In this document: piece by piece, positions 11,980-29,700 of the stretch | Layout: each line of letters begins with the position of its first letter | How positions within the stretch are numbered: position 1 is the stretch's first letter | NCBI RefSeq assembly: GCF_027923225.1 | Contig: NZ_BSDI01000004.1 | Coordinates: forward strand, 186,348 to 218,347 | DNA length: 32,000 nucleotides | Origin: Phytohabitans aurantiacus | GTDB taxonomy: Bacteria; Actinomycetota; Actinomycetes; Mycobacteriales; Micromonosporaceae | Reading direction: 5' to 3' | Notes under the pieces: generated by a model | What the model saw: only the letters and a program-made list of their open reading frames with translations | The model's database searches: none | What the model was told of the DNA's origin: nothing | Program-made: the position numbers and the translations under genes

Positions 11980-12624
11980 GTGGCCTATCCTCCACCTTCC
12001 GCTCTTCCCACCCCTCCCAAGAAGAACAACGGTCTTCTCATCGGCTTGCTCGTAGCCGGTGCGGTGGCAGTGGTCATGCTCTCCGCCTGCGGTGTCGGCG
12101 GCTTCCTGATCTACCGCGAGTACAACGACTCCGAGGAGGCCGGCACCGACCTCGGCACCTCCGCGGAGATCGACGGTCTGGTCAACTACCGGACGTCGAA
12201 TCCCGCCGCGCTTTCCCAGAGCCACGTCACCAGCCCGGTGACGTACCCCATGACCCCGCCCGCCGGCGGCCCGCACTTCGGCCAGTGGCAGAACTGCGTC
12301 GGCGACGTCTACAACGCACCCATCGTGGACGGGAACGCCGTACACAGCCTCGAACACGGCGCGGTGTGGATCACGTACCAGCCCAGCCTCGGGTCCTCCG
12401 ATGTGGAGAAGCTCGCCGCCAAGGTGCGCGGGCAGGCATACATGATGATGAGCCCCTATCCCGGCCAGACCTCGCCGATCTCCCTGCAGGCGTGGGGCTA
12501 CCAGGTCACCGTCGATGACGCGGACGACGACCGGATCGACGAGTTCATCCGGCGGTTCCGCCAGACCGCCACCATGGAGCCCGGCGCCACGTGTGCGTCC
12601 GGCATCACGACCACCACCGGATGA
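11980..12624 (+). CDS. DUF3105-family membrane-anchored protein
   Basis: In the frame of track ORF 11554..12624 only the last ~214 aa look real. A Pro-rich N-terminus is followed by KKNNGLLIGLLVAGAVAVVMLSAC (a TM helix), then the DUF3105-like core ...Y...PP.GGPHF..W.......Y...I.D.NAVHSLEHGAVWITY.P.L....V.KLA.......Y.MMSPYPGQ..PISLQAWG. The first usable start upstream of the TM helix is the GTG at 11980. The upstream part of the track ORF is antisense to the XRE gene. Confidence 0.7.
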   Translation: MAYPPPSALPTPPKKNNGLLIGLLVAGAVAVVMLSACGVGGFLIYREYNDSEEAGTDLGTSAEIDGLVNYRTSNPAALSQSHVTSPVTYPMTPPAGGPHFGQWQNCVGDVYNAPIVDGNAVHSLEHGAVWITYQPSLGSSDVEKLAAKVRGQAYMMMSPYPGQTSPISLQAWGYQVTVDDADDDRIDEFIRRFRQTATMEPGATCASGITTTTG

Positions 12625-12828
12625 AACCTAGCCGCTAACTGATCACTAAAGAGATCACAGTCATTACAAGTGGCACAATGATTGTCTTCTCGAAGTCTTT
12701 CATGGCCGACACCTCACCCTATACTCCCTTTAAGCGTCTCGCTGACGGAGCGCTTCGCCGGCGCGGTTCGTGATCATAGCCGCCTACGCGACGGCAGATG
12801 CGAATCCGCGTCCTGGGTCGGAGGTGCG

Positions 12829-14043
12829 GTGTTCTACTTCTTTGTCAGTTATGCGCGGGGAAACGAAGACGACCTTGTTCGTAAGTTCTGCGCCGACCTG
12901 AGTATCGAGGTGCGCGTTCTCGCCGGCCTCCCTCGCGACGCCGAGGTCGGGTTCATCGACGCCGAGATGAGCCCCGGCACACGGTGGTCACGGCGGCTGG
13001 TCGACGCTCTCTCGACGTGCCGATCCTTCATCGCCCTGATGTCACCCCGCTACTTCTTGAGCCAGCACTGCGGCCAGGAATGGCAGATCTTCGCCGAACG
13101 ATCGTTGCGGTACGAGCAAGCAACGGGAACTGATCCCTCGTTGCTGAAGCCGCTCTTCTGGGTGCCGGTTCCGCGCGGCAAGATGCACCCAGCGGCGCTT
13201 CGCATACAGTTCGCCGATCAAGAGGACGACACCTGCCTGCGGCAGATGATGCGGCTAAAACGCCACGAAGACGCGTACAAGGAATTTCTCTTCAATCTGG
13301 CGAGCCAGATCGTCAACGCAGCCGATCAACATGACATTCCCAACGGCGTCACCTATTCCGATCTCGAGTCCGTGCCGAGCGTCTTCCACCATACGCAGGC
13401 GGTCATCAACGGGGTCCCCGCCAACGAACTGATCGACGCGACGACCGTCCACTTCGTCGTGGCGGCCCCTACACGCAACGAGGCCATGGCGATTCGCGCG
13501 GAATCCACCACCTACGGCGACCGGCGGCGCGACTGGGCGCCCTACCACCCTTCGTGGCCCGATCCACTGAGCGACTACGCGATCAGCATCGCCGCGAGCC
13601 GGAACTTCCTCACGCGCGTGGCGGACCTGGAGGAACTGGGCGAGCGCGCGGCGATCGCCAGTCAGCAGAACCACATCGTCGTGCTACTGGTCGACGCGTG
13701 GATCACCCGCCTGCTCGGCCCACTTGGTCTGCTCACTGCGTACGGGGGCCGTCCCGGAGCACCACGGAACCCCACGACGGTGGTGCTGGGGCCTGCCTCG
13801 GACGGTGACGAGGAGACCCGCGACCAGTGGCCAGCGCTGTCAGAGACCTGGACGGCGACCGCCGGCGGTCTGGCACCGGCCAACGACCTGTCCCGCTGGG
13901 GGATCTCCACGTACCACGACTTCGCCCGCGACCTACCGGCGGCGCTCGAAGTAGCCATGAACCGGGTCTTCGCTAGCGGCAACGTCCGCCGTCAGCCCCT
14001 GAACACCTTCCACATCGAGCGGCCCACGCTCGACCCACCTTGA
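12829..14043 (+). CDS. fxsC: TIR-like protein FxsC (N-terminal TIR-like domain + FxsC C-terminal domain) of the FxSxx-COOH system
   Basis: From the GTG at 12829 (GGAGG RBS 4 nt upstream): VFYFFVSYARGNEDDLVRKFCADLSIEVRVLAG...FIDAEMSPGTRWSRRLVDALSTCRSFIALMSPRYFLSQHCGQEWQIF. This shows the TIR hallmarks FFxSYA and SxxYxxSxxCxxE. The remaining ~270 aa (..HFVVAAPTR.E.......YG....DW.PY......PL.DYA..IA......T.V..L.......A...N.IVVLLVD.W) match what I recall of the FxsC C-terminal family. The track ORF start (TTG 12682) adds 49 unlikely residues. Confidence 0.8.
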   Translation: MFYFFVSYARGNEDDLVRKFCADLSIEVRVLAGLPRDAEVGFIDAEMSPGTRWSRRLVDALSTCRSFIALMSPRYFLSQHCGQEWQIFAERSLRYEQATGTDPSLLKPLFWVPVPRGKMHPAALRIQFADQEDDTCLRQMMRLKRHEDAYKEFLFNLASQIVNAADQHDIPNGVTYSDLESVPSVFHHTQAVINGVPANELIDATTVHFVVAAPTRNEAMAIRAESTTYGDRRRDWAPYHPSWPDPLSDYAISIAASRNFLTRVADLEELGERAAIASQQNHIVVLLVDAWITRLLGPLGLLTAYGGRPGAPRNPTTVVLGPASDGDEETRDQWPALSETWTATAGGLAPANDLSRWGISTYHDFARDLPAALEVAMNRVFASGNVRRQPLNTFHIERPTLDPP

Positions 14044-14081
14044 TCGAGATCGCGAGGTCCACCACCTGAGGAGGCCCGGCC

Positions 14082-17000
14082 GTGACCGCACGCGCAACCG
14101 CCTCGCCAGCCGACTCCGCACCGGCCGGCGGCACCATCATCACCTTTTACTCGTACAAGGGTGGCACCGGGCGCACCATGGCCATGGCCAACGTCGCGTG
14201 GATTCTCGCCAGCAACGGCCTGCGCGTGCTCATTGTCGACTGGGACCTGGAGTCGCCTGGCCTTCACAAGTACTTCCACCCCTTCCTCACTGACAAAGAC
14301 CTGCGCGCCTCCGCCGGTGTCATCGACATGATCCGCGGTCACGCGGAGGCGATGATGCGGCCGATACACGACACCGAGACCACGCAGTGGTTGGAGACCC
14401 ACGCCGACGTGCTGTCCTACGTCCTCCCCGTGGAATGGTCCTTCCGGGACAAGGGATTCATCGAGCTGCTGCCGGCCGGCCAACAGGACAGTTCCTATAC
14501 CGAGACGGTGCGGACGTTCGACTGGACGGCCTTCTATGAACGCCTGGCCGGAAACGCCTTTCTGGAGGCTTTGGCCCGCAACATGCGCGCCAACTACGAC
14601 TACATCCTCATCGACAGCCGCACCGGAGTGAGCGACGCCGCGGGCATCTGCACCGTCCTACTTCCGGACTCTGTCGTGGATTGCTTCACCATGAACGCGC
14701 AGAGCATCGACGGCGCGGTCGCTATCGCTCACTCCATCGTCCGTCAGCGGGTCGAGCGACCGGTGCGGATACTGCCGGTGCCCATGCGCGTCGAGGATGC
14801 CGAACAGGTCAAGTTGGACGCCGGTCGCGATCACGCTCGGCAGAACTTCGCGCCCTTCCTGGGACGCGACCCGGAGGAGGTCAACCGGTACTGGGGTGAC
14901 ATCGAGATCCCCTACAAGTCCTTCTATGCCTACGAGGAGATACTCGCTCCGTTCGGCGACCGGTCACACCAGGAAGGATCGCTCCTTGCCGCGTACGAAC
15001 GGCTGACCCGGATCATCACCAGGAGCCAGGTGCAGCAGGTCGACGCGATCGAAGAGCGGGTACGCCGCCGGTGGCTGGCTGCGTTCGAACGCCGCCGCAC
15101 CGCCGGCGCGCTGGACATCTTCATCAGTTACGCGGCCGTCGACCGAATGTGGGCGGAATGGATCGCCGGGGAGGCGAACGACGCCGGCCTCCGAGCGAGT
15201 ATGCGGGAGATCGACTCCCAGCCGTTCCCCGAGCCGGGCAACGATCCGCCGAGCTTCCTGAGCAACACCAGCCGCGCGATCGTGCTGCTCAGCGAGGATT
15301 ACATCGCGTCGGTGAAGTCGGCCACGACGTGGAAGACCCTCGCGGCTCGCGAGCCCGTGGGCGGTCGCCCGTTCATCGTTCCGCTCCGTCTGGACAACGT
15401 GCGCCTGGAGGCGCCGTTCGACGAGCACATACCCATCGACCTCAGCGGACTGCACGAGCAGCGAGCCATCGACGTCGTACGCGAGGCGCTCCAGCAGCCC
15501 GTATACCCGCGATCCGCGACGCCGACCGAACCAGACGCACCGCGACGCCGCTTCCCTGCGACAGAGCCCCCACTGTGGAGCGTTCCCCAGCGCAACGGCA
15601 CGTTCACGGGCCGGCGACGTGCGTTGGAGGCGCTGCGCAACCGGATGGCTGCGTCTGGCTCGATGGCGAATCCTCAGGCGCTCCACGGCCTTGGCGGCGT
15701 CGGAAAGACCCAGATCGCCCTCGAATACGCGCACCGCTTCAAGGCGGACTACGACATCGTCTGGTGGGTCTCGGCTCAGCAGACGAGCCTCGTGCGCGCC
15801 TCGCTGTCGAACCTCGCGGATGCGCTCGGTCGACGCGCGGGCGAGAGCGTGACGGAACGGATCCGGTCCGCGCTAGAGGCGCTCCGGCAAGGTGTCCCGT
15901 ATCGACGCTGGCTGATCATCTTCGACAACGCGGACGATCCCGACGAGCTTCGCGAGTACGTGCCTCAGGGGCATGGCCACGTCCTGGTCACCACCCGGGA
16001 CAACGCCTGGTCACGCGTGGCGCAGATGGTGGACATCGGCGTGTTCGGACGCGAGGAGAGCGTGGCTCTCCTCCAGCGCCGGATTCCCAATCTTCCCACC
16101 GCCGACGCGGAGACGGTCGCGGAGCGGCTGGGCGACCTGCCACTCGCCATCGAGCAGGCTGGTGCCTGGCTTGCAGCGACAGCGATGCCGGTGTCCCACT
16201 ACCTCGAACTGCTCGAAACGCAACCCCTCCGGATGTTGGAGGAGGACCTACCGTCCGACTACCAGCAGAGCGCGGCCCAGCCATGGCTCGTCTCGCTCGA
16301 CAGCCTGCGCCAGCGCAGTCCCGCCGCCGCCAAGTTGCTGGAGGTGTGCGCGTTCTTCGCTTCCGAACCAATCCCAATCTCACTGCTCTACAGTGACCGC
16401 TTCATCAGCATGCTTCTCCCGTTCGACCCCTCGTTACGCGAGCGAATGCTGATGGCCAAGGCGATCAGAGAGATCAGCCGGTACGCGCTCGCACGCGTCG
16501 ACACGGGTAGACCAGCTGTTGGATCACAGCGCCGGGCGAGCGACCGGAGTGACGAGGGTGGGCAGAGTATCCAACTGCACCGTCTCATGCAGGCCGTCAT
16601 CCGCGCGCGACTCAGTCCCGACGAGCGTGACGAGAACCGCAAGCACGTCCATGAGATCCTGGCAGCCGCCAATCCGGACGGCCCCGACGAGCCTGAGAAC
16701 TGGCCAACCTACGCCGAGCTGTGGCCACACCTGCTGCCGTCCAAGACGCTCGACTCGGACCTGCCGGACGTCCGGCAACTCGTCTACGACATGTGTCGCT
16801 ACATGTGGAAGAGCTACGACTACCCGACCAGCCAATTCCTTGCCGAGCAGGCCGTCGAGAAGTGGGAGGAGGCATTCGGCGCCGATGACCCGCTCACCCT
16901 CATGATGCGCTTCAACCTGGCCACCGCCCTTCGCCTCCAGGCCAACTACACGCCTGCCTACGAGATCGACCGGGACATCTATGCCCGGCTCGGTCGTGTC

Positions 17001-18089
17001 GTCGGCGAGGACCATCCATACACGCTGATGGCGGGCGGCAACCTTGCCGCCGACCTACGCGCCCGCGGTGAGTTGCACGAGGCGCACAGGCTCGATGAGG
17101 CGATCGAGGCGCGGTGGCGGGAGACCTTCGGCGACGACTATCCACGCACCCTGATCGCGGGACACAACCTCGCGGTCTCACTCCGCCTCATCGGCAACCT
17201 GCAGGACGCGCTGCGGCTTCAGGAACGGATCCTGCGACTCCGCCGCGCGGTGCACGGCGATCAGCATCCGTACACGCTGTACTCGTCCAGCAACTACGGA
17301 CGGGATCTGCGCGACACGGGCGATCTGCGGGAGTCGCACCGCGTACTTGAGACTGCGTTGGAACGGCACCGGCGTGTGCTCGGCGAGGATCATCCGGAGA
17401 CCCTCCGGACGGCGAAGAACCTCGCGGTGACGCTACGCAAGCTGGGCGAGTTCGAGCGGGCGCACGCACTGAGCGCCGAAACCCTGGAAGGGTCGCAAAG
17501 GCTGTTCGGTCCTCACCACCCCGACACCCTGGCGTGCGGCATGAACCTCGCCTGCGACGAAGCGGCTCTCGGCCACGACCGGAACGCACGACGACGCGCC
17601 ACACCCATCGTCGACCTCTCCCGCCAGACCGGCGGCGAAAACCACTTTGCCACCTTGGCCTACGCCAACAACCTGGCGATCTTCATGCGTAAGACCGGTG
17701 ACGCCGCCGGCGCACACAGCATCACGACCGATGTGATCAACCGTTTTATGGCGACGGTCGGCCACGAACATCCCTACACACTCGCTGCCCTGCTCAACAA
17801 CGGCAACGACGACTACGACCTGGGCAACTATGCCGAGGCCCGGTCGTCCGACGAACGCGCCTACGCGGAGTTCACGCGGGTCCTGGGGCCCGAGCATCCG
17901 GACACGCTGGCGGCCGCCAGCAATCTCGTGGCCAGCCGCAGGGCCGATGGCGATCCGGGCGCGGCACGCGAACTGTTGGCCGGGATACTGAACACCTACG
18001 ATCGCGTGCTAGGTGCGCACCACCCCAATACCATCGCCGCGCGGGAAGGTCGCCGGCTCAGCTGCGATCTGGAACCACCACCTACCTGA
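14082..18089 (+). CDS. fxsD: FxsD-type multidomain STAND protein: variant ParA/MinD-like ATPase (KGGTGRT) + TIR-like domain + NB-ARC NTPase + C-terminal TPR array
   Basis: 1335 aa. Residues 17-330 read IITFYSYKGGTGRTMAMANVAWILASNGLRVLIVDWDLESPGL...ILIDSRTG.SD, a ParA/MinD fold with Arg in place of the P-loop Lys. Residues 344-460 read LDIFISYAAVDRMWAEWIAGE...AIVLLSEDYIAS (TIR-like). Residues 505-700 read FTGRR..L..L......GLGGVGKTQIALEYAHR...YDIVWWV......LIIFDNADD....VLVTTRD......GDLPLAIEQAGAWL (NB-ARC Walker A/B, RNBS, GLPL). Residues ~900-1320 hold about ten TPR_10/12-type repeats (..GEDHPYTL....NLA..LR..G....A..L). Confidence 0.85.
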   Translation: MTARATASPADSAPAGGTIITFYSYKGGTGRTMAMANVAWILASNGLRVLIVDWDLESPGLHKYFHPFLTDKDLRASAGVIDMIRGHAEAMMRPIHDTETTQWLETHADVLSYVLPVEWSFRDKGFIELLPAGQQDSSYTETVRTFDWTAFYERLAGNAFLEALARNMRANYDYILIDSRTGVSDAAGICTVLLPDSVVDCFTMNAQSIDGAVAIAHSIVRQRVERPVRILPVPMRVEDAEQVKLDAGRDHARQNFAPFLGRDPEEVNRYWGDIEIPYKSFYAYEEILAPFGDRSHQEGSLLAAYERLTRIITRSQVQQVDAIEERVRRRWLAAFERRRTAGALDIFISYAAVDRMWAEWIAGEANDAGLRASMREIDSQPFPEPGNDPPSFLSNTSRAIVLLSEDYIASVKSATTWKTLAAREPVGGRPFIVPLRLDNVRLEAPFDEHIPIDLSGLHEQRAIDVVREALQQPVYPRSATPTEPDAPRRRFPATEPPLWSVPQRNGTFTGRRRALEALRNRMAASGSMANPQALHGLGGVGKTQIALEYAHRFKADYDIVWWVSAQQTSLVRASLSNLADALGRRAGESVTERIRSALEALRQGVPYRRWLIIFDNADDPDELREYVPQGHGHVLVTTRDNAWSRVAQMVDIGVFGREESVALLQRRIPNLPTADAETVAERLGDLPLAIEQAGAWLAATAMPVSHYLELLETQPLRMLEEDLPSDYQQSAAQPWLVSLDSLRQRSPAAAKLLEVCAFFASEPIPISLLYSDRFISMLLPFDPSLRERMLMAKAIREISRYALARVDTGRPAVGSQRRASDRSDEGGQSIQLHRLMQAVIRARLSPDERDENRKHVHEILAAANPDGPDEPENWPTYAELWPHLLPSKTLDSDLPDVRQLVYDMCRYMWKSYDYPTSQFLAEQAVEKWEEAFGADDPLTLMMRFNLATALRLQANYTPAYEIDRDIYARLGRVVGEDHPYTLMAGGNLAADLRARGELHEAHRLDEAIEARWRETFGDDYPRTLIAGHNLAVSLRLIGNLQDALRLQERILRLRRAVHGDQHPYTLYSSSNYGRDLRDTGDLRESHRVLETALERHRRVLGEDHPETLRTAKNLAVTLRKLGEFERAHALSAETLEGSQRLFGPHHPDTLACGMNLACDEAALGHDRNARRRATPIVDLSRQTGGENHFATLAYANNLAIFMRKTGDAAGAHSITTDVINRFMATVGHEHPYTLAALLNNGNDDYDLGNYAEARSSDERAYAEFTRVLGPEHPDTLAAASNLVASRRADGDPGAARELLAGILNTYDRVLGAHHPNTIAAREGRRLSCDLEPPPT

Positions 18090-18093
18090 CCCG

Positions 18094-19848
18094 TCAAACC
18101 GCCAGACACTCCACTGGCTCCAGCCAGGTCGCAAGCTCCAAAGGGTCGACCGTCCCGTCGCCCGTGCCGCTGAGTTCGCGATGGACCGCCATGCAGAGCT
18201 CCGGAAAGCGCAGTCGGGGGGCGTCGGGATCGCGTTGGCAGGCGAGAGCCAGCCCGATCCACGCGTCCACGCGATCGGTCGCCACGATCTCGGCCGCGTA
18301 CGCCCGACGCGCCGCGGGCAGATCACCCGCCGCCAACGCAATGTCGCCAACCGTCGCGTTCTCCCCCGCGGACAGCGCGGCGAACCGCGCGGGCTCGACG
18401 ATCCGCAACCGAGCCAGATCCAGGCGGGCGCTGCGCGTCAGCATCCGCCCGGCGCGCACCGTTTCCGTCGGCACCGGATCGCGAGGGCAGGGCATGCTCG
18501 CCTGCCAGGCAGACGCCAACCGCCGCACGGCGGCCGTCTCCGGCAGCCGGTTCCGTAGCTGCCAACCCACCCTGTGGTCGTCGGCGGCCTCCGCCGCCAT
18601 CGCCACAGTCACGGCATCGGCTGCCTCCTGCTGCCACGGCGATTGCGCGGCCCGCATCCCAGCAAGGAATTCCAGACCCAAGGACGTGAAGCGCCCCGAC
18701 GCTTCGAGGATGTCGAGCGTCCGCCACACGCGATCCCGCCAGCGTACGAACTCGACCTGGGCGAGCTGGCCGGGCCCTTCGGTCAGCAACCGCCGCTGCA
18801 CCCGCCAGAAATCCACGACACCGTGGAAGGCATACGCGCCTTGCAACAAAGCGCCGAGCGGACGGGGATCGTCGCGCCAGGGCGCATAGTGCCGTGGCCG
18901 GTCGTCCCTCTCGTACAGCGGCTGTATGTCGAGCAGCCCGCCGAGCTTCGCGTGCTGGAACTCGTGCAACAAGCCCAAGGCGAGCGCACGGCCGTTGACG
19001 GGCGGCGTCAGCGACACCGCCCCGAACGCCTCCATGCTCGTGACGTTCATGCCGTGATCGGGCCGCTCGCTGTGCAGCGGGACGATCGTCGTCAGGCCCG
19101 CGGCGATCGCCTCGGCGTACGAGCGGTGGTGCTCCACCAGAATGGGCCACGCGTCGTCCAAGAGCCGCTGCCAATGGCGGATGTCATCGTCGCTCAGCCG
19201 TCCCTCGGCGCCTAGTTGGTGGCAGTCGCGAAACGGATCGACATCGTCCACGGACAGCTCGATGCGCAGATCGGTGGCGGCACAGCGCAGGCGACGGACT
19301 GCCTGCCAGCCGCCCGCACTGTGCTCGATATGTTCCGGTACGACCACGGTCCCCAGCTGAGTGCGCCCGCCGATGTGCTCCAGACTGGCGGTGTGCGCAT
19401 CACCCAGGATCGCACGCCCGAGCCCCGGCAGGGTGACGCTGCCGCCGTACACCTTGACCTCGAACTTCGCGTCGACACCCGCCGTCATGGCGGCCACGAG
19501 CGCGACGCCGGCCATGTATTCGAGGCGTGCTTCCAGGCCGCCTTGGGCCTCGGATCCACCGCGGACCGCGCGCAGTGTGGCCGTCAACCACGCGCCAACA
19601 TGCGGCTGGAGCAGCAGTAGGCGTACGGCGGCCGGGGACCGGCGCTCGGCCGCCACCAGCACGTCGAAGTACTCGGCGATTCTGGCCGACCGCGCAGCGG
19701 CCACCAGCTGGCCGAGCATCAGTTGTCGCCTGCTCACCTGCGCGGCGCGGAGTCTGCCCACGATCCGGCCATCGCCGAGGCCGCTGGCAAGGGCCGCGAA
19801 GTCGGCGCTATCGAGGCGATGCGTCGTTTCCGGCGTCAGGAGTTCCAT
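18094..19848 (-). CDS. HExxH-motif protein of the Fxs system (putative peptide-modifying metalloenzyme; this family has been assigned as 2-oxoglutarate-dependent peptide beta-hydroxylases)
   Basis: The motif LGLLHEFQHAKLGGLLD has its HEFQH codons at 18952-18966. The N-terminus MELLTPETTHRLDSADFAALASGLGDGRIVGRLRAAQVSRRQLML looks like the conserved start of HEXXH-domain partners of FxsB. I chose the ATG at 19848. The track start at 19998 would overlap fxsB by 190 nt and adds a low-complexity, non-homologous stretch. Confidence 0.8.
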   Translation of the reverse strand: MELLTPETTHRLDSADFAALASGLGDGRIVGRLRAAQVSRRQLMLGQLVAAARSARIAEYFDVLVAAERRSPAAVRLLLLQPHVGAWLTATLRAVRGGSEAQGGLEARLEYMAGVALVAAMTAGVDAKFEVKVYGGSVTLPGLGRAILGDAHTASLEHIGGRTQLGTVVVPEHIEHSAGGWQAVRRLRCAATDLRIELSVDDVDPFRDCHQLGAEGRLSDDDIRHWQRLLDDAWPILVEHHRSYAEAIAAGLTTIVPLHSERPDHGMNVTSMEAFGAVSLTPPVNGRALALGLLHEFQHAKLGGLLDIQPLYERDDRPRHYAPWRDDPRPLGALLQGAYAFHGVVDFWRVQRRLLTEGPGQLAQVEFVRWRDRVWRTLDILEASGRFTSLGLEFLAGMRAAQSPWQQEAADAVTVAMAAEAADDHRVGWQLRNRLPETAAVRRLASAWQASMPCPRDPVPTETVRAGRMLTRSARLDLARLRIVEPARFAALSAGENATVGDIALAAGDLPAARRAYAAEIVATDRVDAWIGLALACQRDPDAPRLRFPELCMAVHRELSGTGDGTVDPLELATWLEPVECLAV

Positions 19849-21031
19849 CTTGGAGTCGTCCTTTGAGTACAGCGGCAAGATCGGCGTGAACGCGAGGAAG
19901 CACGTGACGAATGAGGCGACCAAGGTCAGCGCAGTAGACCGATGGATTACGGAAGCCCGTCTCCGCACGGTACCGGTGCGGATAGTAGCCGCCACCACAT
20001 ATCCGATGCAGCGGACAGGCCAGACAATCGTCGGAAAGTGCGTCTAGGCCGATCTGCCGGTCTTGGATCTCGGGGTGCTCCAGCACCTCGTCAAGGCTGT
20101 GGTCGAAGACGTTCATGCCGGTGTCGACAGCGCCTGGATACGTGGACCGCAGGGTGTCGATCTGCTCGTACGCGCCGTCGACGTCCACGACGACGGTCGC
20201 CACGGGGCTGAGGCCGATCGTCTCGATGCGGCTTGTGCCGCCCAGCGCTAGGCTGATTACTTCTTCGAAGAATCGAACGCGCGTTTCCCGAACTGGCGCG
20301 TCGTACCAACGATCGAAGGCGGCCACCAGCCAGTCGCCGTAGAGCGTGTCCCCCGCCGACCATCGCGGCGGAGGACTCGTCCAGTTCCCGTGCGGCAGCA
20401 GAAAGTCGATGGCGGGCGGATCATACTGGAGCAGACTGTCGAATGTAGATACCGGGTCGTTGTCCAGGTCGATGACGCTGAGGATGCCAGCGAAGTGTTC
20501 CGGACGAAGGCGCAACGAGCGCAGTGCCCGGTCCACCGCATCGAAGGAACTGCGACCGTTGGCGTACCGCCGATGCCGGTCGTTCGCCCGGCGGTCTCCG
20601 TCCAGGCTTACGCCGATGCGGATGCCTGCCTGGCACAAGCGATCGATCACGCGGTCGTCGAGCAGGACGCCGTTGGTCTGGACTGTGATGTCCACAATGG
20701 CCTGTGGTGCGACGGCGGCACGCACCCGGTCGGAAGCGCGCACAAGAGCGTCCACACCGACCATCATGGGCTCACCGCCGTGCAGCACGACCCGAAGCGG
20801 TCGCCCCGTATCGCCGACATGGTCGGCAATCCGTTCGCATACCCGATCTAGCACGCGGTCCGACATGGCCGAATTGACCTGTCGCCAAGCCGTGTCGGCC
20901 AGTTCGTACATGTAGCAGTAGTCGCAAGCCAGGTTGCACCGGGTGTGGAGCTTGAGCACGAACTCACGGAACGGCGTCCGCCGACGGTCGTGGGCTCGGA
21001 CCAGTGGCACAGCTACATGGCCGAGTTCCAA
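19808..21031 (-). CDS. fxsB: FxsB-family radical SAM / SPASM peptide maturase (cyclophane-forming)
   Basis: PFREFVLKLHTRCNLACDYCYMYE carries the CxxxCxxC radical-SAM cluster (codons at 20915-20938), and VVLHGGEPMM follows. The C-terminal SPASM-like Cys cluster reads DDCLACPLHRICGGGYYPHRY....G..NPSVYC. The start is either the TTG at 21031 (19-nt overlap with fxsA) or the GTG at 21010 (2 nt after the fxsA stop). Confidence 0.85.
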   Translation of the reverse strand: MELGHVAVPLVRAHDRRRTPFREFVLKLHTRCNLACDYCYMYELADTAWRQVNSAMSDRVLDRVCERIADHVGDTGRPLRVVLHGGEPMMVGVDALVRASDRVRAAVAPQAIVDITVQTNGVLLDDRVIDRLCQAGIRIGVSLDGDRRANDRHRRYANGRSSFDAVDRALRSLRLRPEHFAGILSVIDLDNDPVSTFDSLLQYDPPAIDFLLPHGNWTSPPPRWSAGDTLYGDWLVAAFDRWYDAPVRETRVRFFEEVISLALGGTSRIETIGLSPVATVVVDVDGAYEQIDTLRSTYPGAVDTGMNVFDHSLDEVLEHPEIQDRQIGLDALSDDCLACPLHRICGGGYYPHRYRAETGFRNPSVYCADLGRLIRHVLPRVHADLAAVLKGRLQDGTPDAGNDASPR

Positions 21032-21183
21032 CCAGCGACCGCGTCCTGCGGCCGGTCAATATCTTCTAGGATCCGGCGCAGGGAATGAGCGACGACTGAA
21101 CCGCCCAGCCTGGATAAGTCAGACAGACTGAGACCACTCAGATCAACCAGCTCAGGCTGGTTGTCATCAACCGTTGCATCCAC
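21013..21183 (-). CDS. fxsA: FxSxx-COOH-family RiPP precursor peptide (56 aa, C-terminus WNSAM), not in the supplied ORF track
   Basis: My translation of the minus strand from the GTG at 21183 gives MDATVDDNQPELVDLSGLSLSDLSRLGGSVVAHSLRRILEDIDRPQDAVAGWNSAM* with a TAG stop at 21015-21013. An in-frame TAA lies 4 codons upstream, so this GTG is the first possible start. An AAGGG RBS lies 6 nt upstream. The ORF sits immediately 5' of fxsB, and the last five residues fit aromatic-x-S-x-x-COOH. Confidence 0.75.
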   Translation of the reverse strand: MDATVDDNQPELVDLSGLSLSDLSRLGGSVVAHSLRRILEDIDRPQDAVAGWNSAM

Positions 21184-21454
21184 CCGGGGCCCTTACTAGT
21201 CGCAAACATTAAATAGTTGTTCGCGCCGGGGCCCGCAGAGGGCCTGCGGTGGCGCCGCTTGACATTAGCACTTCAAGCCGTCGCGCGCGCCATTTTAGCA
21301 CCCGATCGATGACCGCGCCACTGGGCCATTTGCACCAATGCACCCAATCGGCCGCCGAACGGGGAATAGCAGACAGGCGCCATTACAGATCACGGTCGTT
21401 CCGTTGCATACTGCTATCATCACGCCCGCATCGGATGCGACCCGGAGCGTTGCC

Positions 21455-23185
21455 GTGGCCCAGCCGAACGACCCGACCCAGCATCGTCCCGCCATCAACG
21501 CGCTCAGGCTCGGAATCACCGTGACGGCAGTCGTGTCCCTCCTGCTCGGCTATCTGGGACTGGACGCGTTCCTCAGCGGCTCTGATCAATACGGAAATAG
21601 GCCGATCGACCTCCTGTACTACGACGTCCAACTCTTCGTCCTGGGTGCCGACCCGCTCCAGCAACCCGGTCCCTACCCCTTGCTCCTTGAGATAGCTCGC
21701 CTGACAGCACCGCTGGCGACCATCACCGCTCTCGTGGAGGCGGCGCGGCTGCTCTTCGCCACCGAACTGCGAAGACTCCGCGCCCGGCGTGCTCGCGGTC
21801 ACGTCATCGTGTGCGGCGACACCTCGCTGGCCGGAATCCTCTCCCGCCGTCTCCATGCCGCTGGCCGGCGAGTCGTTCACGTACGAGCACAAGCCGAAGC
21901 CGTCCCGCCGAGTCCGTCGTATCCATTGATCGTGGTTGGCGACGCCCGGGACGCGGGCACCCTGACCGCCGCGGGGCTGAGCCGCGCCACCGCCCTGTAC
22001 GCCTGCGCGCACGAAAGCGCGACCAACATCGCCATCGGCCTGGCTGCTGGCCGTGAACGCCGCCTCCAGGGGCCGTCGCTGCCGATCTATACGCATGTGC
22101 CAGACCCGGACCTGTGCCTTACCCTGCAGGCCAGGTATCTCGGACTGCCGAATCCGCCCGGGGCTCGGCTCGACTTTTTCAACGTCGACGATCTGGCGGC
22201 CCGCAAGGTATTTCTGGAAGATCCGCTCGAGCCGGAGGTCAGGCCCCGGCAGTACATCCTGGTGGCTGGAACGACGCCGTTCGGACAAGCGCTCGCTGTG
22301 GAGGCTGCCCGCCATTGGCGACGAAGGCTCGCTCCGGATCCGAGTACCCGCCTCCGCATCGCGATCGTGGCCAGGAACGCCACCGAGACGCTCGCCAATC
22401 TCGCCCACCGCTATCCGTTTCTTCGACTCTCCTGTCGTCTCGACGCATACGACGCCGACCTCGTGGACATCCTGGCCACCGAGCTGGATGAGGCGCCCGA
22501 CCGCGCCTACATCTGTTACGCCAACGAAGAACGCGCCCTGAAAGCGGCACTTACCGCAGACCGGTACTGGCGAGGACGGAAGAACTGTGTCGTAGTGCGA
22601 CTGGACCAGCTCGCGGATTTCTCCGACGACGGTGGACTCGCCAGCCAGCTGCTCGACGACGGCCCTGCGCGGCTGCGGGTGTACGGCGTTCTGCGCGCCG
22701 CCTGCGATCCCGGGATGATCGCCGAAGATCTCGTGGAGCGCTTGGCTCGCGTCATCCACGACCGCTACCTGGTCGCGCGTCGCTCGCACGGCCAAGCCGA
22801 CAACTCCAGCCCGTCGATCGTTTCGTGGGAACGGTTGCCGCCGGAGCTGCGGCAGACCAACCGGGCACAGGCGGAGGACATCGGGCGGAAGTTGAGGGCC
22901 ATCGGTTATGTGCTCGTGCCACGGATGCGTGAGTCAGCAGATGAGGAAAGCATGAACGAGAACGAGATCGAACGGCTGGCGATGATGGAGCACGAACGGT
23001 GGTGCCTCGACCGCTTGGCGGCGGGTTGGCGCTACGGCGAGCGCCGTGATGACATCCGCAAGCTGCATCCGGCGCTTTGCGATTGGAGCAATCTCCCGCC
23101 GGACATCCGGGAGCGCAACCACGACGCCGTGCGAGAGGTACCTCTGATCCTCTCGGACGCCGGCTTCCAGCTGGTTCGGATCTGA
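21455..23185 (+). CDS. Membrane-associated protein with two Rossmann (TrkA-N-like NAD-binding) domains and two C-terminal RyR (ryanodine-receptor-type) domains
   Basis: The hydrophobic N-terminus reads LRLGITVTAVVSLLLGYLGLDAFL. Rossmann beta1-loop motifs are GHVIVCGDTSLAGILSRRLHAAGRRVVHV and QYILVAGTTPFGQALAVEAA. Two RyR repeats occupy ~22724-23182: ERLARVIHDRYLVARR......SIVSWERLPPELRQTNRAQAEDIGRKLRAIGYVL and ERLAMMEHERWCLDRLAAGWRYGERRDDIRKLHPALCDWSNLPPDIRERNHDAVREVPLILSDAGFQL. I prefer the GTG at 21455 (GGAG RBS 7 nt upstream) over the track ATG at 21338. Confidence 0.75.
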   Translation: MAQPNDPTQHRPAINALRLGITVTAVVSLLLGYLGLDAFLSGSDQYGNRPIDLLYYDVQLFVLGADPLQQPGPYPLLLEIARLTAPLATITALVEAARLLFATELRRLRARRARGHVIVCGDTSLAGILSRRLHAAGRRVVHVRAQAEAVPPSPSYPLIVVGDARDAGTLTAAGLSRATALYACAHESATNIAIGLAAGRERRLQGPSLPIYTHVPDPDLCLTLQARYLGLPNPPGARLDFFNVDDLAARKVFLEDPLEPEVRPRQYILVAGTTPFGQALAVEAARHWRRRLAPDPSTRLRIAIVARNATETLANLAHRYPFLRLSCRLDAYDADLVDILATELDEAPDRAYICYANEERALKAALTADRYWRGRKNCVVVRLDQLADFSDDGGLASQLLDDGPARLRVYGVLRAACDPGMIAEDLVERLARVIHDRYLVARRSHGQADNSSPSIVSWERLPPELRQTNRAQAEDIGRKLRAIGYVLVPRMRESADEESMNENEIERLAMMEHERWCLDRLAAGWRYGERRDDIRKLHPALCDWSNLPPDIRERNHDAVREVPLILSDAGFQLVRI

Positions 23186-25265: not shown

Positions 25266-25342
25266 GAGCCCGGTGTTACCCAGCTCCACCGCTGCTCATG
25301 CCTCGCCCACTATGGTGTAGGCGTGCCAGCACGAGGACCGCT

Positions 25343-26362
25343 GTGATTCACCTACCCACCGCAGCACGGGGACCACTCCGGGCACTCGCGCTGCGCCTGG
25401 TCGCCGCCATCGGACTGGTCCTCTTCATCGTCTTCGTGGTCTATCTCGACCGAGACGGATATCGTGACGGCGACGACACGAGCGGTTTGACCCTGCTCGA
25501 CTGCTTCTACTACACGGTGGTGTCGCTGTCGACCACCGGTTACGGCGACATCACGCCAATCACGCCCCAGGCCCGGCTGGTAAACGTCCTCGTGGTCACG
25601 CCGGCACGAGTACTGTTTCTGATCATCCTGGTCGGCACCACACTCGAGGTGCTGACCGAGCAGTACCGGACCAACGCACGCCTCGCGCGGTGGAGAAGGC
25701 ATTTGAAGGACCACGTCATCGTCTGCGGGTACGGGACGAAAGGGCGCAGCGCCGTGGGCGCACTGCGCGAGAGCGGCTTCGACGTCAAGCGCATCGTCGT
25801 GGTCGAGTCGGACCGCCCGTCGGTGCGGCGAGCCGCCGCCGACGGCCTGGTCGCCATCGAGGGATCGGCAACCCAGTCGACCGTGCTGACGGACGCGCAC
25901 ATCAAGGACGCCAAGGCGGTCATTGTCGCGACCGACACCGACGAGGCTTCGGTACTGGTCACCCTGACCGCGCGGCAGCTCACGGCCGGCAAGGTGCGCA
26001 TCATCGCGGCGGCTCGGGAGGCGGAGAACGCACCGCTGCTCAAGCAGAGCGGCGCTCACCAGGTGATCGTCTCGTCGGCGACGGCCGGGCGCCTGCTGGG
26101 CCTCTCGACGTCGGCGCCGCCGCTCATCGACGTCGTCGAAGACCTGCTGACCCCGGGCGCGGGCATGGCGCTCGCGCTGCGCTCGGCGGCCCGCGACGAG
26201 GTGGGGCGCTCGCCGCGCGAGGTGACCGAGCCGGTCATCGCGCTGGTGCGGCTGGGCCGGATCATCTCGCTGGCCATGCCCGAAAGCGCCAAGATCGAGA
26301 CTGGTGACCTGCTGGTCTACATCCGCGACGACCGCCCGAGCCCGGTGACCGCCTCAGCCTGA
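25343..26362 (+). CDS. Two-TM K+ channel with cytoplasmic TrkA-N/TrkA-C (RCK) gating domains
   Basis: The pore and selectivity filter read DCFYYTVVSLSTTGYGDITP, flanked by TM helices LRLVAAIGLVLFIVFVVYL and VLVVTPARVLFLIILVGTTL. RCK-N is HVIVCGYGTKGRSAVGALRESGFDVKRIVVVE, and an RCK-C-like tail follows. I prefer the GTG at 25343 (GAGGA RBS 5 nt upstream). The track ATG at 25298 is the alternative. Confidence 0.8.
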   Translation: MIHLPTAARGPLRALALRLVAAIGLVLFIVFVVYLDRDGYRDGDDTSGLTLLDCFYYTVVSLSTTGYGDITPITPQARLVNVLVVTPARVLFLIILVGTTLEVLTEQYRTNARLARWRRHLKDHVIVCGYGTKGRSAVGALRESGFDVKRIVVVESDRPSVRRAAADGLVAIEGSATQSTVLTDAHIKDAKAVIVATDTDEASVLVTLTARQLTAGKVRIIAAAREAENAPLLKQSGAHQVIVSSATAGRLLGLSTSAPPLIDVVEDLLTPGAGMALALRSAARDEVGRSPREVTEPVIALVRLGRIISLAMPESAKIETGDLLVYIRDDRPSPVTASA

Positions 26363-28300
26363 CCCTCGGCGGCCTCGCCGGGCGCGGATGTAGTCGGCCA
26401 CGACGTATCGGCTGAGGTCTTCCGCGTCGGGGGTGAAGACCCGGCCGCCTGAGCGCTTCGCCACCGCGTCGACGAACCGGCGCAGCGCCTCGTCTTCGCC
26501 GAGCATGAAGAGGTTGAGCGTGGCGCCGTACCGCGTCAGGTGGTCGACCTCCGTGATCGTCGCCTCGACCGTCTCGCGCAGGGGCGGCCAGAAGAAGACC
26601 GCCTCGCCGTCGGCTTCGAGGTGGGCGGTCGGCTCGCCGTCGGTCACCACCAGCACGACCGGCTCGGAGCCGGAGTGCTTGCGCAGGTGCCGGCCGGCCA
26701 GCTTGAGCGCGTGGTGCAGGTTGGTGCCCTGCACGTAGTCGGGCTCGACGGCGGCCAGCTCGGTCGGAGACAGCGGCATCGCGTACCGGCCAAAGCCGAT
26801 GATCTGCAGCGCGTCCTGCGGAAACTTCGTGGCGACCAGATGCGACAGCGCGAGCGCGGTCTGCTTCATGGGCCCCCAGCGGCCATCGGCGGCCATCGAG
26901 AACGACAGGTCGACGCAGAGCGCCACCGCGGCTGACGCCCGACGCTCGGTCTCGACCACCTCGAAGTCGTCGACGGTCAGCTCGACCGGCACCATCTCAC
27001 CGCGACGGCGTACCGCGTTGCCGACCGTTCGCACCACGTCGATCGGCTGCTCGTCGCCGTACGCCCACGCCCGCGACGCGCCGGTGATCTCGCCAGCCGC
27101 CCCCGCGTCGCGCAGGTCGTGCTCGCCGCGCCGCCGGCCGGACAGGTCGGCGAACACGGTACGCAGAGCCGTGGCACCGAGCCGGCGTAGCGCCTTGGGG
27201 CTCAGCGTCAGCCCATCGGCGCCCCGAGTCACCCAGCCCTGCCGGCGCAGCTCCCGCTCCAGCTCCTGGAGCCGGCGCACGTCGGCCGCCGCGTCACGCC
27301 CCAGGACGCGCTCGACCGACTCCACGTCGACGTCGTCGAGGGTGGCGCCCGGATGCTCCTGGCCCAGCTGGTCGAGCAGGTCGTCGAGGTCACCGATCTC
27401 CGCCAGGGCGCCCGCCGCCTCGCCGTACCCGAGCCCCTCCCGGCCGCGGACCTGAGCCCGCCGATCCCATGCCAGGTCGGGCCGGAGCGTCCGGAGGTTC
27501 GCCGTCAGGCGCGCCATCTCTCCGGCGAGGCCGGCGTTGCCGAGCGCCTGCGCCATGAGCCGCGACAGTTCCTCCTGCTGCTGCGGCGACAGGGAACGCA
27601 TCAGGCGCTCGGCGGCAGCCGCCCGGCGGGCGAGCGCGTCGATCAGCTCGTCGACCGTGGCCGGTTTCTCGGGGAAGAAGTCGCCGTGCCGCCGCATGAA
27701 CTCGGCGAACGTGTCGGTGGTGTCCTCGCCCCGGGCGTGCCGGTCGAGCAGGTCGTTGAGGTCGCGGAGCATCTCGGCCATCCGCTGCTGCGCGGCCGGG
27801 TCGCTGAGCCCTTCGCGGAGGCCGGCGAACCGCTGCTCCAGTACCTCGTCGCGGAGCCCGTCGAGGATCTGCTGGTACAGGGCGCGGGCCTCGTCGCTGG
27901 CCCACTCGTAGTCGGACAGCTCCTCGACGGCTCGCGCGGTAGACCGGGGCAGGTTGTCGAGGCGTGCCTCGGCGAACCGCGCGTCGTCGCCCGGGCGGCC
28001 GGACAGCTCGTCGCGCTCGGCGGCGAGCGCCTGGTCGAGCAGCGCCTGGGATCGGGTGACCGCGCCGTCGAGGTTGCCCCGGCGCATCGCCTCTCGCCGC
28101 AGCCGCCGGGCGCGGGCGGCCAGCTCGTCGAGGCCGCGACCGCCGTCGGGGCCGCGCCGGAGCAGGTTGCGCAGCGCGTCGCGCAGGCTGCCGCCGCCGA
28201 GCACCTCGGAGCCGACCCGGTCGACCGCGGCGCGCACGTCGTACGGCGGCGCGAGCGGGTCGGGCCCACCACGCCACGCGCCGTACCGGTACCGGTTCAT
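26354..28300 (-). CDS. von Willebrand factor A (VWA) domain protein, partner of the upstream AAA+ ATPase
   Basis: From the ATG at 28300: MNRYRYGAWRGGPDPLAPPYDVRAAVDRVGSEVL... A long helical Arg/Glu/Leu-rich middle region follows. The C-terminal VWA domain has a MIDAS motif (ALCVDLSFSM...TNLHHAL......VVLVVTDGEPTAH). The ATG overlaps the ATPase stop (ATGA at 28297-28300). The first 377 aa of track ORF 26354..29431 are an out-of-frame artefact. Confidence 0.8.
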   Translation of the reverse strand: MNRYRYGAWRGGPDPLAPPYDVRAAVDRVGSEVLGGGSLRDALRNLLRRGPDGGRGLDELAARARRLRREAMRRGNLDGAVTRSQALLDQALAAERDELSGRPGDDARFAEARLDNLPRSTARAVEELSDYEWASDEARALYQQILDGLRDEVLEQRFAGLREGLSDPAAQQRMAEMLRDLNDLLDRHARGEDTTDTFAEFMRRHGDFFPEKPATVDELIDALARRAAAAERLMRSLSPQQQEELSRLMAQALGNAGLAGEMARLTANLRTLRPDLAWDRRAQVRGREGLGYGEAAGALAEIGDLDDLLDQLGQEHPGATLDDVDVESVERVLGRDAAADVRRLQELERELRRQGWVTRGADGLTLSPKALRRLGATALRTVFADLSGRRRGEHDLRDAGAAGEITGASRAWAYGDEQPIDVVRTVGNAVRRRGEMVPVELTVDDFEVVETERRASAAVALCVDLSFSMAADGRWGPMKQTALALSHLVATKFPQDALQIIGFGRYAMPLSPTELAAVEPDYVQGTNLHHALKLAGRHLRKHSGSEPVVLVVTDGEPTAHLEADGEAVFFWPPLRETVEATITEVDHLTRYGATLNLFMLGEDEALRRFVDAVAKRSGGRVFTPDAEDLSRYVVADYIRARRGRRGSG

Positions 28301-29700
28301 TCCCGACTGCCGTAGAGGGTGCGGCCCTCGTCGGTCATCGCCTTGGAGAGCCGGCGGGTCAGGTGCAGGCCCTCCAGCACGAACTCGATCCCGGCCGCGG
28401 CCTGCCCGGCGTTGGGCGCGTCGTCGAAGCCCAGCCGCTCCAGCACCTTGGCCAGGCCGGGCACGGTGCCCACCTGGCGCAGCAGGTCGGCCGCACCCAC
28501 CAGATCGCCGGTCTCGACGATCGCGCCGTCGGCGACCAGATCGGTGAAGCCCGACAGGTCGAGCCCGCCGAGCCTGGCCCGGAACGTCTCGGCGCTGGCC
28601 GTGCGCAGCAGGTGCGCCAGTACCTCGATCTCGCGGCCCTCTTCGCCGCTCTCGAACTCGACCTTGCCGCGCAGCGTGCTCACCACGGACGAGGTGTCGC
28701 CCACGCGCGCCACCGCCTCGCGCTCGCCGAGCAGGCCCGCGCGGCGCAGCGCGGAGGCGGCCACGGTCTCGGCGCCGGCGATCGCGAACCGTGCCGACAC
28801 CCCGGAGCGGGCGTCGACCGAGGGCGAGTCGCGAACCGCGCGGGCGAACCGCGCCACCACCTCCAGGACGTGCTCGGGCACCTCGGCGACGAGCTGCGCC
28901 TCCTGGCGTACCAGAGCCAGCTCCAGATCGAGTTCGAGCGGGTAGTGAGTGCGGACCTCGGCACCGAACCGGTCCTTCAACGGCGTGATGATCCGGCCGC
29001 GGTTGGTGTAGTCCTCGGGGTTGGCGCTCGCGACGAGCAACAGGTCGAGCGGCAGCCGGAGCTGGTACCCGCGCACCTGGATGTCGCGCTCCTCCAGCAC
29101 GTTGAGCAGCGACACCTGGATGCGCTCGGCGAGGTCGGGCAGCTCGTTGACGGCGAAGATGCCGCGGTTGGTGCGGGGTACGAGTCCGAAGTGGATGGTC
29201 TCCGGGTCGCCGAGGGTGCGGCCCTGTGCCACCCGGATCGGGTCGACGTCGCCGATCAGGTCGCCCACGCTGGTGTCGGGCGTGGCCAGCTTCTCGCCGT
29301 ATCGCATCGAGCGGTGCAGCCAGCTCACCGGCAGCTCGTCGCCTAGCTCCTCGACCAGCCGCCGGGACGCCGGGGTGAGCGGGTGGTACGGGTGCTCGTT
29401 GAGCTCGGAGCCGGCGATCACCGGCGTCCACTCGTCCAGCAGCTCGACCAGTGAGCGGATGACCCGGGTCTTGCCCTGACCGCGCTCGCCGAGCAGGACC
29501 AGGTCGTGGCCGGCGAGCAGGGCCCGCTCGACCTCGGGCAGCACGGTGCCGTCGTATCCGACGATGCCCGGGAACCGGGGCGTGCCGTCGCGCATCCGGG
29601 CCAGCAGGTTTTCGCGCAGCTCCTGCTTGACCGTGCGGTGCTCGTGGCCGCTCGCGCGCAGCTCACCCAGGGTGCGGACCGTGTTTGGCAATGAGGTCAC
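28297..29700 (-). CDS. AAA+ ATPase of the Mg-chelatase ChlI / MoxR-like clade
   Basis: 467 aa with a GTG start at 29700. Walker A is HDLVLLGERGQGKTRVIRSL and Walker B / sensor is RGIFAVNELPDL.ERIQVSLLNVLEERDIQVRGY.LRLPLD.LLVASANPEDYTNRGRIITPLKDRF. This family is commonly annotated as magnesium chelatase-like ATPase and is paired with a VWA protein. Confidence 0.85.
   Translation of the reverse strand: MTSLPNTVRTLGELRASGHEHRTVKQELRENLLARMRDGTPRFPGIVGYDGTVLPEVERALLAGHDLVLLGERGQGKTRVIRSLVELLDEWTPVIAGSELNEHPYHPLTPASRRLVEELGDELPVSWLHRSMRYGEKLATPDTSVGDLIGDVDPIRVAQGRTLGDPETIHFGLVPRTNRGIFAVNELPDLAERIQVSLLNVLEERDIQVRGYQLRLPLDLLLVASANPEDYTNRGRIITPLKDRFGAEVRTHYPLELDLELALVRQEAQLVAEVPEHVLEVVARFARAVRDSPSVDARSGVSARFAIAGAETVAASALRRAGLLGEREAVARVGDTSSVVSTLRGKVEFESGEEGREIEVLAHLLRTASAETFRARLGGLDLSGFTDLVADGAIVETGDLVGAADLLRQVGTVPGLAKVLERLGFDDAPNAGQAAAGIEFVLEGLHLTRRLSKAMTDEGRTLYGSRE

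Follow-up and report, generated by a model that had tools for sequence, protein, structure and literature searches.

fxsA of Phytohabitans aurantiacus, a Trp-type member of the FxSxx-COOH precursor family in a predicted cyclophane peptide locus

Triceptides are built on an ω1-X2-X3 motif, in which any aromatic residue may occupy ω1 and a bond joins the aromatic side chain to a β-carbon (PMC11499958). The characterized maturases differ in the ring carbon and residue they use: MscB, an enzyme of the FxsB family, links Phe-C4 to Ser-Cβ, XncB and OscB link Trp-C6 or Trp-C7 to Cβ, and HaaB links His-C2 to Ala-Cβ (PMC11002830). In addition, a standalone FxSxx peptide-processing system of actinobacteria has been tied to a TIR-AP-ATPase-TPR protein with a MinD/ParA-like domain (PMC7159879, section 24). 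Here we describe fxsA, a 56-codon open reading frame (ORF) of Phytohabitans aurantiacus, and the genes around it, in a stretch of 32,000 nucleotides (contig NZ_BSDI01000004.1, positions 186,348 to 218,347 of the forward strand), which is referred to below as the window and numbered from its first letter. In our reading, to which we assign a probability of about 0.85, fxsA encodes the precursor of a complete Trp-type FxSxx-COOH triceptide system, for which homology predicts cyclophane formation and hydroxylation.

A preliminary description of this DNA had placed a minus-strand ORF directly 5′ of a radical S-adenosylmethionine (rSAM) gene. The letters match it exactly, including both signals claimed upstream of the start codon (an in-frame TAA and an AAGGG motif 6 nt before the GTG). 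The gene itself is supported by the family model and by its unique match in the window, and the remaining features listed here were read directly.

21013..21183, minus strand: fxsA precursor gene, 56 codons plus TAG, GTG start
21183-21181, minus strand: GTG start codon of fxsA
21195-21193, minus strand: in-frame TAA bounding fxsA
21190..21194, minus strand: AAGGG ribosome-binding-like motif, separated from the GTG by 6 nt (ccccgg) and overlapping the in-frame TAA
21015-21013, minus strand: TAG stop codon of fxsA
21016..21030, minus strand: codons TGG AAC TCG GCC ATG of the core W52-N53-S54-A55-M56

The minus-strand translation is V(M)DATVDDNQPELVDLSGLSLSDLSRLGGSVVAHSLRRILEDIDRPQDAVAGWNSAM*, and a longer N-terminus is ruled out by the in-frame TAA at 21195-21193. 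The core pentapeptide consists of the ω1-X2-X3 motif and two further residues ahead of the free carboxylate. Two start codons may be considered for the downstream gene, fxsB: GTG 21010, located 2 nt past the TAG of fxsA, and TTG 21031, which overlaps the Trp codon and is the one chosen for the rSAM ORF in the mechanical ORF list. Since close homologues are 398-402 aa long, GTG 21010 is favoured; the fxsA stop thus lies next to the fxsB start region, as had been described. This gene order suggests translational coupling of fxsA and fxsB.

The hidden Markov model (HMM) search proposed in the preliminary description bore out its assignment of the peptide to the FxSxx-COOH precursor family: on TIGR04268, fxsA scored 35.3 bits (cut-off 28, E 9.5e-9), with residues 13-55 aligned to positions 1-43 of the 44 in the profile. 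The same model matched 10/10 aligned sequences (the window and nine Trp-type relatives). With its 56 aa and a stop codon 2 nt before a co-oriented fxsB, the gene has the size (about 50-70 aa) and position of a small precursor. Its C-terminus, W-N-S-A-M, does not read literally Phe-x-Ser-x-x-COOH, but Ser at position -3 and the five-residue register are present, and the aromatic residue at -5 follows a small residue (…A-V-A-G-W52), an A-G-ω1 arrangement that recurs across the family listing. W52-N53-S54 has the form of the ω1-X2-X3 motif, and the adjacent maturase is, by its matches to TIGR04269 and to the ChlB rSAM domain, an rSAM/SPASM three-residue cyclophane-forming enzyme (3-CyFE). Phe is the majority label of the family and not a requirement, and NCBI's equivalog itself names this W-type protein; membership is accordingly judged by the curated model and the surrounding genes.

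An identical protein is present in RefSeq (WP_407676748.1) as [quoted passage not shown], where RiPP stands for a peptide made by the ribosome and modified after translation, and a PF27839 match is precomputed for it in Pfam. The gene is therefore annotated already, as belonging to a known family, and is not hidden in the public record. What holds of its earlier description as "hidden" is that the ORF falls below common length cut-offs: its absence from the ORF track, which is no biological property, is probably due to such a cut-off (the default of the ORF lister is 60 aa), and the ORF is listed once the threshold is set below 56 aa. A Pfam-A scan of the peptide gave no match, which is not evidence against membership, since the copy used apparently predates PF27839. 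A metagenome scan with the peptide alignment returned 5 loci only. A 496-aa glycosyltransferase of Punica granatum is also placed in the 90%-identity cluster around the peptide; this looks like a clustering artefact.

High-GC actinobacterial DNA is rich in spurious ORFs (114 of at least 40 aa over 13 kb), and fxsA might accordingly be a chance open frame that is not expressed. No sigma-70-like promoter was found upstream of the gene, in a scan whose scope does not extend to actinobacterial promoter types; promoter, terminator and repeat searches of the 154-bp upstream region gave nothing above shuffled expectation, and an alignment of the upstream regions of six Trp-type loci revealed no motif common with the window. 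A chance frame is, however, difficult to reconcile with a score above the cut-off of a curated HMM and with the position of fxsA as sole family match. Indeed, when all six-frame stop-to-stop pieces of the window were searched with a family HMM derived from 50%-identity representatives, only the fxsA ORF was matched (E 2.9e-27; next best E 0.31), and no second precursor copy was detected by this search.

The same alternative is contradicted by conservation across genera. Codon comparison with nine homologous loci gave ratios of non-synonymous to synonymous change (pN/pS) of 0.24-0.46 with 60-78% of synonymous sites changed, which points to a peptide under purifying selection. In the databases, the ten nearest relatives share 55-96% identity with fxsA, retain the leader blocks in all cases, and all end in ...RPQDAVAGWNSA[M/V/L] or WNSAIG. 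The conserved regions comprise the leader LVDLSG.SL.DL ... SLRRILE.IDRPQDAVAG and the C-terminal W-N-S-A-M, of which W, N, S and A are invariant among 10 aligned Trp-type sequences. Moreover, the order fxsA-fxsB-HExxH gene, with fxsA directly ahead of fxsB and co-oriented with it, is kept in the closest loci (our labels L001-L003 and L081-L083), so that a conserved ORF does occur at the orthologous position. These comparisons indicate that fxsA is a conserved, selected coding gene. Together with the RefSeq annotation, they leave the probability of a chance frame close to nil, and this explanation may be regarded as effectively refuted already.

To determine the distribution of residues at ω1, 1.84 billion cluster representatives were searched with a profile, which yielded 318 relatives at E <= 1e-3. 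Among the best 150 of these, 144 could be classified: 105 carry F, 27 carry W, 9 carry Y and 3 carry H at this position, although pattern-match artefacts account for some Y assignments. The query profile was Trp-biased (W in 18/49 of the top third and 3/46 of the last third of the best 150), and since the share of W drops down the ranking, its family-wide share is probably nearer 10%. The recurrent W motifs among the best 150 are WQS (10), WNS (7) and WNA (6), plus a WSS group. The small ORFs that precede fxsB homologues were also tabulated for 80 genomic loci, as the preliminary description had recommended for F and W, and F, W, H and Y types were all seen (the ends included GFQSSI, GFNSSI, FSSSI, GHESSI, GYGSAF, GWNSAM and GWNAAIG, among others). 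Trp at ω1 is thus a recurrent natural subtype, shared by dozens of sequence clusters, and Ser at X3 is not invariant in the family. The earlier statement that Trp here replaces a family-defining Phe is correct as to W at -5 and Ser at -3, but Phe is only the majority label and W a recurrent subtype.

The closest sister loci come from Phytohabitans sp. LJ34, P. kaempferiae and metagenomes. Several sister precursors end in W-N-A-A-I/V-G (L001, 5805-5972; L002, 5826-5993; L081/L082, 6001-6168; L083, 3130-3288); in these peptides Ala replaces Ser at X3 and one extra C-terminal residue is present. No fxsT gene was observed in the examined flanks of L001, L002 and L081, and one is present in the window and in L003. 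On a JGI contig carrying P0195, another Trp-type precursor (…AGWSSYV) adjoins an rSAM gene, and directly upstream are genes for an EAD2-domain protein, a PycTM-domain protein and two Crp-type regulators binding cyclic nucleotide monophosphates, neighbours that agree with the association with cyclic-nucleotide conflict systems put forward by Kaur et al. A further family member, ending …SGWSSYVD (L087, 1522-1746), lies on a 2.7-kb contig with no rSAM gene among its neighbours; some FxSxx-like peptides may occur without FxsB, or this contig may be too short.

The maturase gene directly downstream of fxsA has the following features.

19808..21010, minus strand: fxsB, rSAM/SPASM three-residue cyclophane-forming maturase (TIGR04269), 400 aa from GTG 21010
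20915-20938, minus strand: codons of CX3CX2C, the radical-SAM cluster motif of FxsB

FxsB scored 450.3 bits on TIGR04269 (cut-off 370) and 60.9 bits on the Pfam Radical_SAM model. The closest solved structure is the rSAM domain of ChlB (9gm3, E 2.4e-74), and an anaerobic sulfatase-maturating enzyme (anSME) structure, 4k36, was matched at E 1.2e-17. In an alignment of 15 FxsB sequences, C25, C29 and C32 as well as C329, C332, C338 and C360 are invariant. Beyond CX3CX2C, only these last four cysteines are thus invariant. For two SPASM auxiliary clusters, seven or eight would be expected, and FxsB may accordingly have just one such cluster.

In a neighbour-joining tree of 83 FxsB proteins, the 14 enzymes paired with W-type precursors (those of the window, P0012, P0033, P0040, P0042, P0065, P0081, L001-L003, L081-L083 and L086) form one clade with no non-W member. 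No FxsB protein outside this group exceeds about 55.5% identity to the window enzyme, F-type enzymes reaching at most about 56%. Positions fixed in the clade and differing from F-type enzymes are M34, L37, A128, D160, Y196, Y281 and V295, of which M34 and L37 lie just past the CX3CX2C motif, and A128 corresponds to His in most F-type proteins. On this tree, Trp-type Fxs is a coherent subfamily or subclade, and the clade-specific residues are candidates for mutagenesis.

By analogy with the characterized triceptide synthases, FxsB would reductively cleave S-adenosylmethionine, and the resulting 5′-deoxyadenosyl radical would take a hydrogen atom from the β-carbon of Ser54 (X3). We infer that the Ser54 carbon radical would then add to the indole of Trp52 (ω1), coupling Ser54-Cβ to the ring and giving a three-residue cyclophane with a mass shift of -2 Da. 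FxsB is also homologous to anSME (TIGR03942 E 1e-39; PDB 4k36, as above), and it might instead oxidize Ser54 to formylglycine or aminomalonate like these relatives, with Trp serving for recognition only and no crosslink being formed. The FxsB-type enzyme of Ma et al. 2021 is said to give mainly formylglycine in vitro and the cyclophane in vivo. At least in its title, as cited in PMC10288494, that paper reports a promiscuous FxsB-type enzyme.

Oxidation of Ser alone would, however, leave the WNAAIG ends of the closest sisters (L001, L002, L081-L083) without a product, since Ala cannot give formylglycine. This favours C-C coupling at Cβ, which is the one reaction common to Ser and Ala. The essentially invariant aromatic residue at -5 (F, W, Y or H in 144/150 representatives) also speaks against this alternative, and the characterized FxsB-family enzyme MscB forms a Phe-C4 to Ser-Cβ bond (PMC11002830). 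We consider Ser oxidation without a crosslink very unlikely as the activity of this FxsB.

The gene following fxsB encodes the second predicted tailoring enzyme, an α-ketoglutarate (αKG)-dependent HExxH protein.

18094..19848, minus strand: αKG-HExxH-type peptide β-hydroxylase gene (TIGR04267), 584 aa from ATG 19848, with an intact HEFQH motif

It overlaps the 3′ end of fxsB by 41 nt. The protein scored 160.7 bits on TIGR04267 (cut-off 40) and did not reach the threshold of the "inactivated" FxsBH model (124.6 vs 225). Among solved structures it matched PDB 22nu at E 5.4e-52, with HEFQH conserved, and ChlH (8s5f) at E 5.2e-6. PDB 22nu/22ob is a chain of 440 aa whose deposited name is "Radical SAM core domain-containing protein". 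About 400 of its residues align with the HExxH hydroxylase, and no radical SAM domain is aligned. This chain probably represents the hydroxylase portion of a fusion of the FxsBH type, and it offers the best template for the HExxH enzyme of this locus.

In the proposed pathway, this αKG/Fe(II) enzyme would β-hydroxylate the ring residue Asn53 (X2) after cyclization (+16 Da), and a protease may release the C-terminal peptide. ChlH hydroxylates Asp/His on a pre-installed cyclophane, and PflC and PosC β-hydroxylate Gln and, in a variant, Asn (PMC12636437). Since X2 is Asn or Gln in about 100/144 classified representatives and HExxH enzymes offer such precedents, Asn53 is the best candidate site, and its earlier proposal as the target of the HExxH enzyme is plausible. 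Kaur et al. read the HExxH protein differently, as a zincin-like metallopeptidase releasing the C-terminal peptide (PMC7159879), and PflC shows hydrolytic peptidase activity, with PflC and PosC also cleaving oxidatively before Ala to leave a C-terminal amide (PMC12636437). In the FxSxx family, X3 is commonly followed by Ala or Ser, and the enzyme could accordingly be a leader peptidase, or an oxidative trimmer acting at Ala55 and leaving an amide, and not an Asn53 hydroxylase. The curated model, matched at 160.7 bits, names the domain a β-hydroxylase, and the activity of ChlH on pre-installed cyclophanes also speaks against cleavage as the only function. Trimming is further opposed by the register of the family: exactly five residues run from ω1 to the end in 105/144 representatives, which argues, as does the family name, that the last two residues are retained. 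Cleavage in place of hydroxylation thus seems unlikely to us, though it deserves attention, and the two kinds of activity are not mutually exclusive.

Several points weigh against the assignment of fxsA to a functional Trp-type triceptide system. The evidence presented here for the chemistry is at the level of sequence throughout, and Asn53 as target of the hydroxylase derives from family statistics and analogy only. Since an FxsB-type enzyme has been reported as promiscuous, Ser oxidation is a possible side or alternative reaction. As the W-paired FxsB proteins constitute a single clade, adaptation is not separable from ancestry, and the clade-specific residues are no proof of an adapted pocket. 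Neither a protease nor an exporter is apparent beside the operon. Finally, a paper characterizing a Trp-type Fxs substrate was not found in the literature searched, which did not cover the main surveys (Nguyen 2020 and Sugiyama 2022).

The locus is completed by two genes of the opposite strand.

14082..18089, plus strand, convergent with the hydroxylase gene: fxsT, NF040586 1012.7 bits (cut-off 300), NF047398 144.9 bits (cut-off 90)
12682..14043, plus strand: fxsC, encoding a TIR-like protein, NF040588 135.6 bits (cut-off 130), TIGR04276 106.1 bits (cut-off 55), Pfam TIR_2

All five fxs genes score above the cut-offs of curated family models, and by these models the locus is a canonical, complete Fxs system (fxsA, fxsB, αKG-HExxH gene, convergent fxsT, and fxsC). 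FxsT contains KGGVGR/ParA-like AAA, TIR, NB-ARC (STAND) and TPR domains (Pfam TIR_2, NB-ARC, TPR_12 and TPR_10). The start of fxsC is uncertain, since its alignment to the model sets in at residue 52. Of 80 related loci, 65 have fxsT and 55 have the HExxH gene within 6 kb of fxsB. Together, FxsT and FxsC represent an immunity-like effector/sensor architecture joined to a RiPP operon. PADLOC returned generic matches only (the N-terminal AAA region of FxsT as PDC-M28B and the rSAM protein as pVip), and assignment of the locus to a catalogued defence system was rejected on this ground.

The find is correct but ordinary, in that RefSeq already has names for the gene, its family and its partners; since these names exist and aromatic variation at ω1 is accepted in triceptides, it carries little weight as a discovery. 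Its value lies elsewhere. The W-type precursors and their exclusive FxsB clade represent a natural F-to-W specificity switch in one enzyme family, the list of clade-specific residues may be useful for engineering cyclophane synthases, and the compact, complete locus is a reasonable test case for the role of Fxs systems linked to TIR/NB-ARC/TPR proteins. The product may be secreted as a metabolite, or it may act together with the TIR-STAND proteins FxsT and FxsC, as a signal or a toxin coupled to them. A bolder proposal is that the Trp-type clade makes an indole-to-Cβ(Ser/Ala) cyclophane unlike every characterized triceptide in ring topology, and that the modified pentapeptide is an intracellular ligand or trigger for FxsT and FxsC and not a secreted antibiotic. 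We consider this combination decidedly improbable; if true, a bacterial conflict or immunity module would have a RiPP for its signal. The intracellular-signal reading concerns the whole Fxs family and not the fxsA ORF alone.

Other genes of the window were inspected for a connection with the locus. A divergent gene encoding a protein with TrkA-N and RyR domains (21338..23185, plus strand) was rejected as a part of the system, since no homologue was found within 6 kb of fxsB in 80 loci. Two kb beyond it lies a gene for a K+-channel-like protein (Ion_trans_2 and TrkA_N domains; 25298..26362, plus strand), which likewise has no homologue near fxsB in these loci. At higher coordinates are a gene for a 1025-aa protein with only a C-terminal vWA domain recognizable (26354..29431, minus strand) and, adjoining it, one for a subtilase (S8) with FG-GAP repeats (29770..31701, minus strand). 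Proteins with vWA domains are components of the VMAP ternary systems linked to FxSxx peptides by Kaur et al. (PMC7159879). The G+C content of positions 12001..23000 is mostly 0.64-0.68 (0.70 at 18-19 kb), compared with about 0.67-0.75 in the flanks (mostly 0.69-0.75). From this lower G+C content, the fxs region may be a horizontally acquired island.

The FxsB-type maturase MscB, which we take to be a Micromonospora enzyme, and its precursor MscA share with the locus a single C-terminal ω1-X2-Ser-x-x-COOH motif and the expected coupling of an aromatic carbon to Ser-Cβ. The maturase family (TIGR04269) and precursor family (TIGR04268) are also the same (IPR026335/TIGR04269; Nguyen et al. 2020, as summarized in PMC11002830). 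However, ω1 is Trp and not Phe in the locus, and for this reason the ring would be indole-bridged and not a Phe-C4 paracyclophane; the maturase, moreover, falls into a separate, exclusively W-paired FxsB clade.

XncB (Trp-C6) and OscB (Trp-C7) are rSAM/SPASM 3-CyFEs that form Trp-to-Cβ three-residue cyclophanes on W-x-x motifs, as is predicted for the locus, and both enzymes also accept Asn-containing motifs. They belong to different families: FxsB of the locus scored 129 bits on XyeB (TIGR04496) and 99 bits on GrrM/OscB (TIGR04261), far below cut-off. In addition, their precursors carry repeated motifs and come from proteobacteria or cyanobacteria, whereas the present locus is actinobacterial and TIR/STAND-linked, and its precursor has a single C-terminal motif. 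The His-Ala-Ala triceptide synthases HaaB and ScaB, which differ in aromatic residue and enzyme family, show that X3 can be Ala, which makes the sister W-N-A precursors chemically credible.

The ChlB/ChlH system (Morishita et al. 2024; PDB 9gm3 and 8s5f) has the same succession of a cyclophane synthase and an αKG-HExxH β-hydroxylase acting on the cyclized motif. ChlB and ChlH are fused, unlike FxsB and the hydroxylase of the locus, which are encoded by separate genes; the latter enzyme is far closer to PDB 22nu than to ChlH, and ChlA has multiple Y/H motifs. Finally, the system described by Kaur, Burroughs, Iyer and Aravind (2020; PMC7159879) has the same gene set as this locus: an FxSxx peptide, an rSAM-SPASM enzyme, an HExxH protein and an AP-ATPase (NB-ARC)-TIR-TPR protein with an extra MinD/ParA-like domain. 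These authors took the HExxH protein for a peptidase, and Trp-type peptides were not a subject of their paper.

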